DNA from: Podarcis pityusensis
Lineage: Eukaryota
Strand: one strand, 5' to 3'
Assembly (NCBI GenBank): GCA_964106645.2
Contig: OZ067042.1
DNA: 64,000 nt
Position numbers and translations under genes: made by a program. This document shows positions 9,059 to 40,542 of the stretch, piece by piece. Position 1 is the stretch's first letter; the number at the start of each line of letters is the position of its first letter. The notes below the pieces were generated by a model. It was not told the origin of the DNA. It ran no database searches and worked only from the letters and a program-made list of their open reading frames with translations.

Positions 9059-9238
9059 CCGTACGAAGCTGGCTGGGAACCAGCCCTCGCTGTCCATTAT
9101 TCTGCCCCACCACCATTCTTTGTTAGTTGCATCCATTACTTCAATGACATCACCAGCCTTGAAGCCCAGCTCTTGGTCATCCATGGTGACATGATCCCAG
9201 AGTGCTTCGGCGTAGACCACACCACCATCACTGATGAG
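9059..9238 (-). CDS. ARHGEF4: ARHGEF4 SH3-domain exon: [60 protein letters not shown]
   Basis: Acceptor ttccag|CTC; donor CGG|gtaaga. 180 nt. SH3 signatures ALWD, WWWG and GWFPASFV. Confidence 0.96.
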
Positions 9239-27760: not shown

Positions 27761-30141
27761 TCCTCTTCCCCCAAGCAATCCTCCTTATCTGGTTTTTGTT
27801 TTTTGTTTTATCTCAGCAAAGCACCAGCTTCCCACTTCATCTTCAGCAAAGTAACTGCCTCCATAAGCATTAGCTGAGTGAAGCTCCTATAGGAAGAGGG
27901 CTGCGTGTGCTGGAGCCCAGAGATCTCAGCAGCGATACTGGCTTTCTAAAGAGCTAGTCAGCTATTTGCTAAGCGCTGTAGCTAGGATACATGCAAGCCC
28001 TAGCAACGGGGGAGAGCGGGGAGGGCAGCAAGGAAAATGTGGGTCTTTCAAGGAGGGTTACAGAAGTGGAGGCAAAAAAAACCAAAGGCAGCTGTGTTGG
28101 TCCATAAGCGGGGGAGAGGAACCCTCCAAAATGCAGAGCTCTGAAGTATCTTTATTAAGATCAGCCAAAATGTTGCCAAATAGGGTGCAAGGCTTTGAGT
28201 TCTCCAGAATTCTTTATCAATCTAGGCACTGCCCAAGCAGGGGTTGGGGAAGAGGAGGGGGAGGCATGGGTACAAAAATCTGGTTAGCTGTTGAAGCCTG
28301 AAGGTTTGCATTCAGACTCAGTCTGCAGATGGAGACGTTAACTGAATTAGTCTCTACAAGATATCAGATGATATTTAGGATTGAAAGATGAAGAGGCAAT
28401 AGCCCAGTTTTGAAAACAATTTTGATGCTGTTAATCAAATGTGGCATTCATTTAAAAAATTCAGCTATGAGCTGAGTAGGCAAAAATAAATTAACAAAAT
28501 TAATAAGATTAATGCAGGTGCTTCTTCAGATATTGCATAACGGCAATAGCAGTAGACAGAAAAGGAAATACAAATTGCAAGTGTAGATAACCTAATTCTT
28601 CAGCAATGGAAACAAGGAAAAACCTGGCCAGCCTTGGGTAGTGAAAAAGCAAAGGCAGGCACTTGGATCCAGAAAAAAAGCCTCCATGATTGTTACAAAA
28701 TAAGAAGCAAGCTTTCCCGGGGTCCAGAACTCTTAATGAGGCTGGAAGCTATACAAAGGAGAGTTGCAGGGGAAGGGAAGAACAAAAAAGAGAGAGCAGA
28801 AATAGGCTGGTATGTAGCCAAAAGACCTTCATTTAGACCCAATTTCAAGATGGAATTTGCATATTGTCTCTTTAAATAGATACATCAGTTTCAGCAAACT
28901 ATTCTAAAACTGATTTTCAATCATCATGTAAAATATATAAGAACATCTATGTTCTGTATACTCTGAATGAGAAGATTCCTATGATCGGAAATAGGAATTG
29001 ACCTCATTCAGATCTATTATTAGTATTATTTATTTAATTTATATACTGCCCTTCATCCAAAGTTCTCAAGTGCTTTCAACATTTTTGAAATCTAGAGATT
29101 CACTATGATTTTTAGCAAATAATTCACACAGCTACTCAGAAAAATGTGGGAGGACAGATGCACTCTTCCCCCAAACACACCACACTAATAGCAGCCAGGT
29201 CATCTGAATCATATATCACAAGCATGTATGGCAGGAAGCAAAACCACAGTTTGTGCATGATTCAATTATGCAGATAACCCATTGTCTTAAGTTATGTTGT
29301 ACACTAACTTGGTAACTTCTGATTTAATGGCAGTGTATATGCTTTAAATACAGTAAATAAAAAGAATAATACTGTAATACAGAAACAGGTGGGGGAGGCA
29401 GGTGGACACCCAACACACAATGGTTCCGTAATCTACACTGAGATGTTTTTCAAATGTTAGTACTTGAGAGACCAGTTCTGTTTCTGAACTATGTGTCTGG
29501 CCTGATTGCCCTCTTCTCTCCCTTGCTAACATAATTTACTTTTTGCCCATAAATCTTTGAAAGTCCTCACCAAAGTTATCTATATTTGTGAATTGACACA
29601 AAAGAGTGGATTTGGAAGACATAGAGTCAACACAAGCATCCTGTTTGACTTGAGTTCCTGGTCAGATTGTGGGAGAGAATGCATATTCCACATTTTATTT
29701 TTAAGACTGTGTACGAAAGACTCCAAGCCACTCAGGAGACAGGCGCTGGACCATGGTCTGATTGAGGGAGATTTCCATTTGGAATTAAACAAACAAACAG
29801 ACTACCATATCTGATTTTGGGACTTAGCACAAACATGTAGGCAGGCAGGCTTAGTATGCAAACTCCCACCACTGCCCCAGCTCAGATTGTTATCTCCCTT
29901 GTGTCTAGGAAAGGCTAAATGTTATGAAAGCCAAAGTATTACCAGTTTTTCACAGAGAGATCAACATTTCAACAAAAGACTCATGCAACCATCTTAAGCT
30001 GGCAACAGTACAAGCTCAGGATGTGAAGTTTGACTTTTTGCACTGTGAAGTCATATTTGTTGAAAACTTTACAGTAGTATGGCAAACACAGAATCAACGG
30101 CACTGCCACTTTATCAGGAAAGAAAAAAGTCAACCCGTACC

Positions 30142-31230: not shown

Positions 31231-33663
31231 TTCACACGTGCACGTCATCAAGATTATATTTTGTGCTAATTTTATGTTTGCATTGGGTTTTTTTTTTTGT
31301 GAACTGAGTGTACTCCATGTTTAGCTCTCTTCTTTTTGTTGAAAATTGAATTAGAATACTTTCAATACATACACAAATGTTCAACATGCTCATGTGAATG
31401 CACACTTTTATTTGCAGGTATTTTAATTCCAGGAGGAAGTCCTCTGGAATTTGTCTCATTACATATGTAGGAAATGTATGTATATGTATATAGAGTGAAT
31501 GTGGTACAGCAATTAAAGCATCAGACGTTAACCAAGGAGAATGAGATTCAACTCCTTATTCAGCCATTAAGTTCACCAGGTGACCCTGGGTCAATCTCTC
31601 TCTCAGTATAAACTTCCTTACAAGGTTGTTGTGACAATAAAATGGAGTGGGGTGAATAACCTTATGTACCACACTGAGTTGCTTGGATGAAGGGTATGAC
31701 GGAAATTTGAATAATGGTGAAAACTATGGGCCACATTCCACGCAGCTCCATGAGCAGAAAACTTCCAAACACACAATGGAGTTTTCTCTCCCTCTCCTAT
31801 ATGTTCCAGGCATCCCCACCCCAAATAAAAACAGCTTCAGAGGTTTGGGGGATGTTCCAGAGCAGATTTGGGGAGCATGTGGGGGAGAGATGGAAAGAGA
31901 AGTGCTGCTGCACCAGAAGAACTATGCATGTGAAGCACTGGGCACAATTTTCCTGTTGTCCCTAGCTGATTTTGATGCTGGTTTTATAGATTTCATATTT
32001 CTTATGTAACCTGTTTTGGACAATGAACTGATATCAAAAATCAAATGCAACAGCTACCCACCACCAAAAGTCTGACAGAACAATGGTGACAGGCCCTTGC
32101 TGGGGACAACACTCCATAATGACTGGAGCAAATGCCTTGTCTCTCATGATCACCTGCCAAATTTGTGTTAGCGGGGCTGTTGTAGCCTTGGGGGGGGGGT
32201 AGTCATTACCAGCTGATTATTTATAGGAGATGCATTGCTATTTATATTATAGTAATTTTTTCTAAATTTGCATCCATATGTACAAATGAGAATATGCAAA
32301 TTGGCACCGTGTTGTATCCTCATTTTCAGTGATGGCTTTCCTTTTTTTGTGGTGATGGGAAGTGGTCATTCTCTTTGTCTCTAGTGGGCTTCAGCAGAAA
32401 GCTGGGTGGGTAAGGAGGTGAAAGAAAAAGGGGAGATTTAGGGAAGACTGAAACGGGAAAAGAAACAGAAATAAACAAAAGTTTAATTAAAAAATAGATT
32501 GTTTGCATCCAGGCCTTGCCAGCTGTGTCCTTTTCAGGAACAAGATACAAAAAGGACCTCACATGATGAACAGGGCACACAGGAAGAAACACATGGAACT
32601 TTAAGGCAATCTTGTCCCATAAAGTTTATAAGTACCAGCACCTTAAACTGGCCCTGAATAGAATAGTCACTGCAAATGTTACTGAGATTATGTGCTCTAT
32701 CTCACCAGCACCTGGCTGCTACATTTTGGACTACAGTATTCTAAACACTTTGCAGTGTCAGGCTTACATAGAGAACATTTCAATATGAGCTGGAAATTCT
32801 CAAGGAATGAATTACCGTGCCCAGGTCAGTCTTATCCAGAAAAAATACAAGATTCATAAAGACATGTGTCTATGTTAAAGATCAAGGACGAGTAAGATTA
32901 TCCACAGTGAAATCTTTAACAATACTGAATAACTTGAGCAGGCATCTGAGCAAAAGGGGCCTTACCACAGACTTTACCAACGTGGTACCATCCAGATATT
33001 TTGGACTACTGTGTGCTGCTTTCCATGCATAATCAACTGTGTGCTGCTTTCATGAACTGAATTGTGCCCTAAATCACCACACACTTTTGTGCCAGATTAT
33101 TTGCCATCTTTATTGCAGCCTTGCTCTATAGCGTGTGAGCCTGTAAAGATCTGTGCAATCTATTAGCTGGGATAAGCAAAACAGCCTGCTCTCCAGTGAA
33201 TGCAGTTCAGTGTTATACGGGGTTATGCCAAGTGGCTTTATCTGGGTATGAAAAATTAATAACACTAATAAATCTGCTTGCACAGATCAAGGAGAGAGAG
33301 AAAAGATGAAAAGCCTAACGGTAACATTAGAATTTACTTCACTGTGAAAGCAAAGTGTGGGAGTTGGTTTGGCAGTGCCACAAAACAAACACACAATAGC
33401 CTCCTCTTTTACCCTCGCAATCCAGGATAAACCAAGATAACTAAACATAACAGACATACAATGCTTGGCCATCACATACATATTCATTTTTTGTGTTCTT
33501 CTATGATCTCTGGTCTAATCAGGCATGCAGGTTTTCATAGTATTTCACCCTGTACTAGGGTAGCTATGTGAAAAATAGGACAAGGCTTCTGCATCTTACA
33601 TAGTTGTGAATATAAAAAAAATCCTTCCAGTAGCACCTTTAAGACCAACTAAGTTAGTTCTTG

Positions 33664-33701
33664 GTATGAGCTTTCGTGTGCAAGCACACTTCTTCAGATA
33701 C
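33664..33701 (-). ncRNA. Mirror-copy minimal hammerhead ribozyme motif, in ARHGEF4 sense orientation
   Basis: The same sequence on the minus strand, because the palindrome is perfect. Confidence 0.6.
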
Positions 33702-33704
33702 AGT

Positions 33705-33742
33705 GTATCTGAAGAAGTGTGCTTGCACACGAAAGCTCATAC
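33705..33742 (+). ncRNA. Minimal type I hammerhead ribozyme motif (Penelope-associated)
   Basis: GUAU-CUGAAGA-A-GUGUG(CUUG)CACAC-GAAAGCUC-AUAC: CUGANGA and GAAA cores, stem II hairpin, palindromic AGCU stem III, UC cleavage site, and stem I GUAU/AUAC. Confidence 0.65.
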
Positions 33743-33892
33743 CAAGAACTAACTTAGTTGGTCTTAAAGGTGCTACTGGAAGGATTTTTTTTATTTTGAC
33801 TATGGCAGACCAACATGGCTACCTATCTATAGTTGTGAATGAAAGTCTCTCTACTACATAAAAGTGCCGAAACACTTTCCTCTTCTGCATCT

Positions 33893-34051
33893 AAATAAAA
33901 AGATTGTCCAGTAGCACCTTAGAGACCAACTAAGTTTGTTCTGGGTATAAGCTTTTGTGTGCATGCACAAGTTGGTCTCTAAGGTGCTACTGGACAATCT
34001 TTTTATTTATTTTGACTACGTCAGACCAACACGGCTACCTACCTGAATGTA
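33893..34051. mobile_element. Second Penelope-like remnant with shorter inverted arms
   Basis: Same family as 33612-33828. Arms aaataaaaagattgtccagtagcaccttagagaccaact / its reverse complement; 10-bp direct repeat TTCTGCATCT (33883-33892 and 34052-34061). Confidence 0.75.
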
Positions 34052-36274
34052 TTCTGCATCTGGTCACCTGCCACCTCAGCCCCAAGCCCAGGGTGTCAGC
34101 AAAATCCAACCACACCCTTCCAACCAGATTCTGAAAATCAGTAGGTTGCCAGCACTCCTGACTGTCAGACCTTACTGGACATTCCTGCAGATTCAGATAG
34201 ACAAAAGCTAAAAGTCCAATTGAATTCAATCAGCCTTACTTCCCAGTAAACAGGCTGCAAGGCTCATTTGCTTTTCAAACCTAGTCTGGATTCCCATCTT
34301 TCTGAGGTGGTAAAGTTCACACACAGTGACTTACCACCTTATTTTTCACATGGCAAGTCATTTGTGTGAAAACAGCCTCTATGGGGGGGGGGGGAGAGAA
34401 ATGAAACACTACCTTGTCCAAAAAAAATGCTTAAAAACATGACAGTGTGTTAGGAAAGCCACTGTGTATTAATCAGCAGCTAAACTTCTCCTTGTCACTG
34501 AAGTATTGAGTGAGGCACTTCCTGCCCCCACCCCACCCCCCGCAAGAGCATGATAACAAAATACTGTAAACTTTTATTATTTTTAATATGGCAGGCACAG
34601 TTAAATGTTCAACCTCACCTGCAATCTTAAGAACATAGGAAGAGCGTGCTGGATCAGGCCAATGGTTTGACTTCACTCCCCGGAGGCGCCTTCCACTGTC
34701 TCTTGAGACAGACACCAACCTCTAGTGGGGAGTGTTGTTGTGTTCAGGCCCTCCTTTCAGGTTGGCAATGTGACAAGCAAGCACTGGACAAGATTGGTCT
34801 GCTGATCCAGCAGGCCTCTTTTTAAGCTGTTATATGGCAAACTGGTGGCAGTTGGTGTGGAAACTGTTGAGCCCAGCCCATTTTGAAGCCCTTTCAAATA
34901 TCACTCAGCCTTTGCCAGAGCAGGAGTGCAGCTATTTCACTCTGGGCAGCTGGATCCACCGCCCTGCCCCCCCCCCCAAAAGCCCATGCTGTGAGGCATC
35001 TAGAGAGAGAGAGAGAGCTGCAATTACATGCCATTTGAAGTGATTTTAGGGGGATTTGAAGTGAAGCCCGCCTTTTCTGGGTTGCCTTTATTGGTAGGCT
35101 GATCAGTGAAAACATTCACAGATTTAGTTTCGGGAGTGGGGGTGGGGGCAAGAAACAGGAATGGAATGGCAAGAGACTTTTCAGGTGCATCTCAGCAGGA
35201 GCTGAGGTATAAAATGCACTATGGGAGATTACGCAGCTCTTGTAGCAGGGAAATTGTATGGACTTTTAAGAGCCGAGAAAGAAATAAAAAAGAACTAACA
35301 ACAAAGGTTTGGGAGAGAATTACTTGAACAAGTTCCGAAGGGAAGAAATGCATAATTTACTTAGGAGCTTTGGGTTTCAGCACTCCCTGAGGAAACATAT
35401 TAGTGATTTTTAAAAACTTAATTTTATTTGATGGGTTAGTAGAATGTATTCAATTTAAACTTATACCTCTGGGTACAGGGCAGTATATAAATTCGATAAA
35501 TAAAATAAATAATAATAATCTTGTTATTACCAAAGCAGAACTAAAAAAATAAAAACTGTAAGATGCTGCACAGCAAATGTGCCCTACTTCTCCAATCTCG
35601 CAATATAAATTATGTGGTGCAGTGTGCAGCTCATACAACCTCCTTGTAATATACTTTCCATTAAAGCTGTGAGAGGGTGGGCAGGATTTCCCTCATCAAG
35701 AGGGCGAAAATATATTTTGAACCCTCCAGGAAAATCTGAAAGGGAGGGAGAGGTATGGTGGATGGGTAAGGGGAAAGGAATGGCAGATGAGGAAGAGTAA
35801 AGCACCCTCCTTTCCCACTGCTTCTCTGTTGTAAATTCTACTTCCATCTGAAAAGGATTCTCTTTTTAAAAAAACCAAACAAACACTGTGACCGGTCTCT
35901 CTTGCACATGCTAAATGTGTTGTTAGCACTGGACTGAGCAACAGAGACAGTATGAATAAAGTATGGAGTCACAAGGTCAGGGCTGTGGTTCACCAACCAG
36001 ATGACCTGCCAGAGGCACTGGAAATGCTGTGTATCAATTATTATTGTTGTTGTTGTTATTTTATGGTTTTAATACTGTGAACCATCTGGATCCTCTGAGA
36101 AATGCAGGGTGTATGTATATTAATCTGAAAAAATGCCTGACAAGGAAAAATCAACAGTTCCACATTCATTCAAATTGTACTTAATCAAACACTGTTAAAA
36201 TGTTTTGCCACAATGTCTCCTCATGTAAAACAACATATCTAATTCTATTCTTATTATATTCATGGAAGACTAGA

Positions 36275-36511
36275 GTACCTCGGGTTACATATGCTTCAGG
36301 TTACATACGCTTCAGATTACAGACTCCACTAACCCAGAAATAGTACCTCGGGTTAAGAACTTTGCTTCAGGATGAGAACAGAAATCGTGCTCCGGCGGCG
36401 TGGTGACAGCAGGAGGCCCCATTAGCTAAAGCAGTGCTTCAGGTTAAGAACAGTTTCAGGTTAAGAACAGACCTCCAGAACGAATTAAGTACTTAACCCG
36501 AGGTACCACTG
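36275..36511. mobile_element. Same Tc1/mariner MITE, copy 2 (left TIR eroded, internal 16-bp duplication)
   Basis: Same internal sequence, with tandem ttacatatgcttcagg/ttacatacgcttcaga. Confidence 0.8.
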
Positions 36512-40408: not shown

Positions 40409-40542
40409 CTCATTAATAGCAAGCTGTTCTCCTCCTCCACCTGGGTGGCCATAACGATGGCTAGAACTTCGGAAGTCTTCATACAAGTCTTCTTCACTTC
40501 CCACATCATCACTGGTTTTCTCCAGCGATCCATCAGCAATGA
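40409..40542 (-). CDS. ARHGEF4: ARHGEF4 exon, APC-binding region: (x)IADGSLEKTSDDVGSEEDLYEDFRSSSHRYGHPGGGGEQLAINE
   Basis: Acceptor tattttag|TC ATT; donor AAT GAG|gtactg. 134 nt, phase 1 in and phase 0 out. Contains the Asef GGEQLAINE motif. Confidence 0.93.

Follow-up and report, generated by a model that had tools for sequence, protein, structure and literature searches.

Penelope-like elements (PLEs) of the EN+ type leave insertions of a characteristic form. Their typical features, according to PMC3846280 and PMC8557442, are an inverted, 5'-truncated pLTR, a tail at one end only and a short target duplication. Metazoan PLEs also carry minimal type I hammerhead ribozymes, for which Cervera and De la Pena (2014, PMC4209133) describe a 4-bp helix I, an extra base between positions 9 and 10.1, a G10.1-C11.1 pair, a palindromic 15.2-16.2 segment and no helix III. 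According to that account, monomers were uncleaved and dimers were cleaved poorly, and cases in which two minimal motifs face opposite strands at a distance of about 100-700 bp had already been noted. The protein of PAc, a Poseidon element of Anolis carolinensis, was reported to cut and extend both strands in vitro, with two start sites bounding the tail and no need for hammerhead cleavage (Frangieh et al. 2024, PMC11167929). Finally, non-LTR retrozymes are described as head-to-tail tandems that derive from PLE pLTRs and carry type I hammerheads (bioRxiv 10.64898/2026.07.22.740005). The inverted pLTR, the tail and the minimal hammerhead have each been published already, and the motif of the family studied here may itself be among the supplementary alignments of PMC4209133. 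We investigated one locus in a 64 kb stretch of DNA, hereafter the window. With good confidence, we read it as a 217-bp insertion in which bases 1-125 of the pLTR of a Neptune-type PLE are arranged as a mirror image, likely primed from both staggered-cut ends on uncut RNA, with hammerheads that are predicted to be inactive where they now lie.

The initial annotation proposed two back-to-back minimal hammerheads, one per strand. We ran a minimal type I hammerhead descriptor on both strands of the whole window and obtained exactly two matches, at 33705-33742 (+) and 33664-33701 (-), which bear this out. The chance expectation was a mean of 0.06 matches and a maximum of 1 in 100 order-2 Markov simulations, although the two matches are not independent because one is the mirror copy of the other. 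The proposed layout also held: stem I pairs GUAU with AUAC, and between these come CUGAAGA, a single additional A, stem II of 5 bp with CUUG as its loop, GAAA, GC and UC. By the same descriptor, the catalytic nucleotides are intact in both motifs, as had been claimed: all of the required core (C3 U4 G5 A6 N7 G8 A9, G12 A13 A14, A15.1, U16.1 and H17) is present, together with the extra base at 9/10.1, the G10.1-C11.1 pair and the palindromic 15.2-16.2 from the feature list in PMC4209133. The predicted cut lies after C33738, in a CUC triplet, on the + strand and at 33668 on the - strand, where the motif is in the sense of the ARHGEF4 pre-mRNA. Helix I is likewise 4 bp and helix III is absent, as in the metazoan PLE motifs, but helix II has 5 bp here and 7-8 bp in the Schistosoma motifs of PMC4209133. 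Moreover, unlike the widely spaced pairs noted in that work, the two motifs are 3 bp apart within one perfect hairpin, and thus they cannot act as a tandem dimer. The Infernal check that had been suggested failed to support the annotation, since no Rfam hammerhead family matched in 32500-35000 at E values up to 10, a result that would be expected for a motif without helix III. The only matches there were to Rfam microRNA-hairpin models, all below their gathering scores and explained by the palindrome. Folding of the single motif (z -0.31) gives no standalone support. Four decayed relatives from another PLE family (L160-L163) keep the core and have other stem II loops and a GCAU/AUGC-like stem I.

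Both motifs lie in a palindrome that has G33703 at its centre and is perfect for 91 bp in each arm, with its first mismatch at offset 92. The whole insertion spans 33612-33828 between two exact 12-bp target-site duplications, the left at 33600-33611 and the right at 33829-33840. We number positions so that q1 is window position 33704, q2 is the first base of stem I and q-1 is the base preceding q1; the predicted hammerhead cut then falls between q35 and q36. The forward arm (33704-33828, +) is pLTR q1-q125. The inverted arm (33612-33702, -) runs from q91 to q1 without the tail and is the perfect complement of 33704-33794. At the junction (33701-33703), two bases, CA, fit either arm when compared with the parent sequence upstream of q1. 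The 34-bp tail (33795-33828, +) belongs to the forward arm only and includes the likely start codon at 33802 and the first nine ORF codons; such tails have been described for PLE insertions (PMC3846280, PMC8557442). The TATA-like box of the parent pLTR is absent from this stub. The head-to-head inverted 5'-truncated pLTR, the one-sided tail and the short duplication are thus the same as in the EN+ PLE insertions of those two papers. However, the arms here meet at the first bases of the hammerhead, and in the rotifer EN+ examples the duplication is 8-10 bp, whereas this stub has one of 12 bp and no ORF body. The forward arm also has a T-rich tract at 33782-33797; on the - strand, the sense of the host, it gives AATAAA and from its sequence could be a premature polyadenylation signal in the ARHGEF4 intron.

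A Penelope-like origin had been proposed, and intact copies with reverse transcriptase (RT) and GIY-YIG domains carry the same motif in their pLTRs. In two of these, L107 and L115, direct pLTRs about 3.0 kb (2,993 bp) apart enclose a single uninterrupted ORF with RT plus GIY-YIG at its C-terminus, the arrangement of EN+ PLEs. The L107 ORF encodes 910 aa and has its start codon inside the tail. It matches RVT_1 with an E value of 2.5e-12 and GIY-YIG with one of 2.2e-4, the GIY-YIG score of 21.9 bits being just under the Pfam cut-off of 22.6, and CQQC sits between the two half-motifs (EN+ PLE definition per PMC8557442). The ORF also has C-x4-C-x2-C, which is the Neptune linker motif CX2-5CxxC, common to Neptune and Nematis according to PMC8557442. 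By the definitions in that paper, the parent classifies on its sequence as an EN+ PLE of the Neptune or Nematis type, and we infer Neptune over Nematis from the vertebrate host (bioRxiv 10.64898/2026.07.22.740005). PAc, in contrast, is a member of the Penelope/Poseidon clade with a hammerhead that overlaps its start codon, whereas in the family studied here, whose ORF carries the Neptune/Nematis linker motif, the hammerhead precedes the likely start codon by about 60 bases. The copy in the window belongs to the L107 family as a pLTR stub (95% over 140 nt to L107), and its 91-bp arm and 34-bp tail correspond to the inverted 5'-truncated pLTR and the 30-40 bp tail at one end of EN+ PLEs. The parent pLTR has a TATA-like box about 30 bases above q1 and an initiator-like TCAGT immediately before q1, which probably act as a promoter; TATA and initiator-like motifs are also described for EN+ PLEs (PMC3846280, PMC8557442). 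The full-length copy at L107:3834-6958 has an altered stem II in both of its pLTRs. In a related organism, 19 RNA reads (4 and 9 start places in runs X21 and X22) jump from L107:4024 to 3832, so that q191, within the ORF, is followed by q-2; this would reflect either a partial tandem in DNA or a circular RNA.

The element is young and very common. The tail pattern has 2,689 exact matches genome-wide, and two hammerhead 5' ends lie head to head within 25 bases at no fewer than 697 loci. The back-to-back layout is therefore a routine product of insertion by this Neptune-type family. We sampled insertions by their tail only, taking the first 100 tail matches on contig C1, all from its first 55 Mb. 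Six were dropped (one segmental duplicate and five internal or second tails), leaving 94. An inverted arm is present in 69 of the 94, and in 18 both arms end within q-12..q6. A flanking repeat of at least 7 nt was found in 82, with a length of 12-13 nt in 56, and arm lengths grade from less than 50 bases to more than 1 kb. At one locus, L129:3451-4041 (G000:C16 near 38,744,500), an inverted arm is followed by four head-to-tail q2/3-q125 units joined by AG. Two or more head-to-tail hammerhead units, the hallmark of a retrozyme, were found only there; the window locus is head to head, with one motif per strand. Judging from its sequence, the L129 tandem could form a hammerhead dimer in cis and would be the best natural substrate for cleavage.

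The - strand motif was said to be in the sense of ARHGEF4, and the flanking - strand exons confirm this because they match consecutive stretches of 2dx1_A. The exon upstream of the host intron (40409-40519, -) matches residues 26-60 of PDB 2dx1_A (E 5.6e-14), and the downstream SH3 exon (9059-9235, -) matches Pfam SH3, with its best PDB matches to ARHGEF4 (2dx1_A residues 62-120). Since both match consecutive ARHGEF4 stretches, the insertion is intronic, in an intron of about 31 kb. A second, older stub from a related subfamily (33893-34049; 83-86% identical, also with an inverted arm) lies 52 bp beyond the first insertion. It has no CUGANGA core and has AAAA in place of GAAA, and its 12-bp duplication carries one mismatch (33881-33892 and 34050-34061). 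An 11-base word of its target recurs at 33586-33596, just left of the first insertion. Further short inverted repeats in the window, at 36343-36506 and at 29015-29062 / 35467-35514 (arms of 20 and 48 bp), are probably other interspersed repeats.

How old is the first insertion? Of the 125 bases of its forward arm, 1 is different in the intact-type copy L014. Two related organisms have contigs in which unique sequence continues for 81-82 bases beyond 33611 with no match to the element, and these contig ends would fit a site that lacks the insertion and leads into the older stub. A contig from a third run agrees with the window at all of 612 bases and ends exactly at 33611, as might be expected where an assembly branches between filled and empty alleles. 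These observations suggest that the insertion is very recent and possibly polymorphic.

The ends of the arms fall at a few preferred places. Forward arms start at about q126-135 and inverted arms mostly at q88-100, and RNA reads of a related organism have loose ends at q130-132 and q89, the same two boundaries. At the other end, 55 of the 163 arm ends in the 94-insertion sample lie at q-5..q6, or 0.046 per base against 0.002-0.006 elsewhere, an enrichment of about 10x. Only 2 of the 163 lie at q33-38, around the predicted cut, and we therefore reject the idea that template 5' ends are mainly produced by the hammerhead. Genome-wide, 1,287 arm ends are at q2 and 1,145 at q-1. In a hand count of the first 100 q2 rows, three of which are point changes in intact copies, the preceding base was G, which the parent lacks, in 69, A in 15 and C in 16, an excess of G with p 4e-13 against one third. 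Extra Gs of this kind usually come from copying of the 5' cap, as known from LINE-1 work, and we infer that this is the cause here. The base before q-1 (first 100 rows, counted by hand) was T in 88, C in 8 and G in 4, which a cap alone is insufficient to explain and which suggests an added base or slippage. CAG before q1 was considered as a splice acceptor and rejected, since the truncated arms have no common exon upstream.

Do any templates come from cut RNA? Ends at the cut site number 30 rows genome-wide, and the ratio of q2 to q36 ends is only approximate because the anchors for the two counts differ and subfamily coverage is unequal. After one point mutation and one 1-base deletion were dropped and rows of the same locus merged, ends at q36 were found in 17 loci, compared with 8 at the control position q40 under like filters. 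This difference of about 2x (two-sided binomial p ~0.11) does not prove an excess, the more so as an AT overlap there favours joins anyway. Both arms end at q36-37 in six loci. We take these counts as a weak hint of a minor class of cut templates. RNA reads of the related organism on L107 have no begin or end peak at the cut site, and are uninformative on cleavage since such libraries miss cut ends; they are deep over the pLTR on both strands and nearly absent from the ORF, and 87-91% of them continue into unlike sequence. At six long insertions (L034, L042, L057, L059, L120 and L121), the arms stop within about 30 bases of each other deep in the element, as if both had met the same broken RNA end.

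We propose that the mirror-image stub arises by two primings. The GIY-YIG domain would nick both target strands about 12-13 bp apart. One DNA end would prime at about q126-135 and the other at about q88-100, and these two different sites would explain why only one arm has a tail. Both cDNAs would extend to the RNA 5' end, at the start of stem I about 30 bases below the TATA-like box, and their ends would join via short homology. The hammerhead would then be present twice because the transcript starts with it. PAc likewise has two internal RT starts that bound a tail at the ORF start region, and there too both strands are extended with uncut RNA as the main template (PMC11167929), although this in vitro analogy is drawn from another family, a Poseidon element with its hammerhead over the start codon. 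At the diagnostic site q63, both arms have a base in 57 loci, and they agree in all 57 (46 A/A and 11 T/T, with one more locus gapped), for which independent draws give p 6e-10. Both arms therefore come from one source element, though not necessarily from one RNA molecule. Two primings on the same or a sibling RNA would fit this agreement, the reach of the arms and the Anolis in vitro data. Our literature search, which covered sources outside subscription journals, found no paper mapping a cap signature at a PLE hammerhead and none stating twin priming for the inverted pLTR.

The same agreement at q63 would also be expected if the tail-primed cDNA reached the RNA 5' end, snapped back and was copied into the inverted arm, with endonuclease resolution leaving the tail. 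Short pieces from snap-back or slippage do occur at many junctions, palindromes of this type are interpreted in PMC3846280 as products of self-priming on an antisense template, and endonuclease resolution of the tail is proposed in PMC8557442. However, fold-back of the tailed cDNA cannot yield a longer inverted arm, and in 34 of 69 loci the tail-less arm outreaches the tailed one in the 5' direction by more than 5 nt, compared with 10 in which it reaches less far (p 4e-4) and 25 in which the two are within 5 nt. At L044, L101 and L108, the inverted arm is hundreds of bases longer. Fold-back would thus need a common, one-sided later deletion, and we regard it as rather unlikely. It is extremely improbable that the palindrome is itself mobile, whether as a non-autonomous element with two hammerheads or as a retrozyme, and moves by being transcribed, cut on each strand and then copied in its entirety. 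The many head-to-head loci, a few junctions that recur letter for letter and the array of four units at L129 would fit such an element, but junctions vary between loci (first 50 loci examined), arm lengths are graded, the stub has no TATA-like box and, by prediction, neither motif is accessible within the hairpin. Our preferred reading, with two primings on uncut RNA, accommodates the unequal arms.

Could the - strand motif nonetheless cut the ARHGEF4 pre-mRNA, alone or with a trans partner, and so affect the host gene? Its core nucleotides are intact in the host sense, and protein-assisted cleavage has been reported for the Anolis PLE hammerhead (PMC11167929). On the other side, the expectation that the 91-bp hairpin would sequester the motif was upheld by folding: the read-through RNA is predicted to form a long hairpin of about -173 kcal/mol, in which the closing pair of stem II has a probability of ~4e-19 and stem I one of ~4e-44, by energies that take no account of proteins or of folding kinetics during transcription. 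Transcription of the host gene makes the antisense arm before the motif, and this arm would pair with the emerging motif. A partner is also hard to find, since each strand has one sense motif, which makes a tandem dimer impossible at this locus, and the neighbouring stub is without a core. A single minimal motif showed no cleavage in PMC4209133. As modelled, the double-hammerhead fold (-11.1 kcal/mol) is no better than two separate monomers (-6.0 each) and compares with -25.7 for the inactive duplex. The hammerhead is thus likely to be silent here on these predictions, and cutting of ARHGEF4 is very unlikely.

The window locus itself is ordinary, and the end map of its family is a modest addition. 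However, the young age of the family, its intact ORFs and its thousands of dated junctions allow end maps to bear on PLE integration and on the role of the hammerhead (PMC11167929, PMC4209133), and these maps speak for two primings on uncut RNA rather than for rolling-circle use of RNA that had been cleaved. We tentatively suggest, as a possibility that we hold to be less likely than its negation, that in this family the first base of the hammerhead is the capped start of the mRNA, so that the cut removes the cap and 34 bases and serves as a self-decapping off switch rather than in RNA release or circularisation; the template of nearly all stubs would then have been RNA that was capped and uncut, with priming from both DNA strands, and that of ~1% RNA cut at the hammerhead, to which the six loci with both arms ending at q36-37 would belong. 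Inverted Penelope copies yield siRNA in Drosophila (PMC3681739). By analogy, the hundreds of perfect 90-bp intronic hairpins that this family has left could feed RNA editing or small-RNA silencing.
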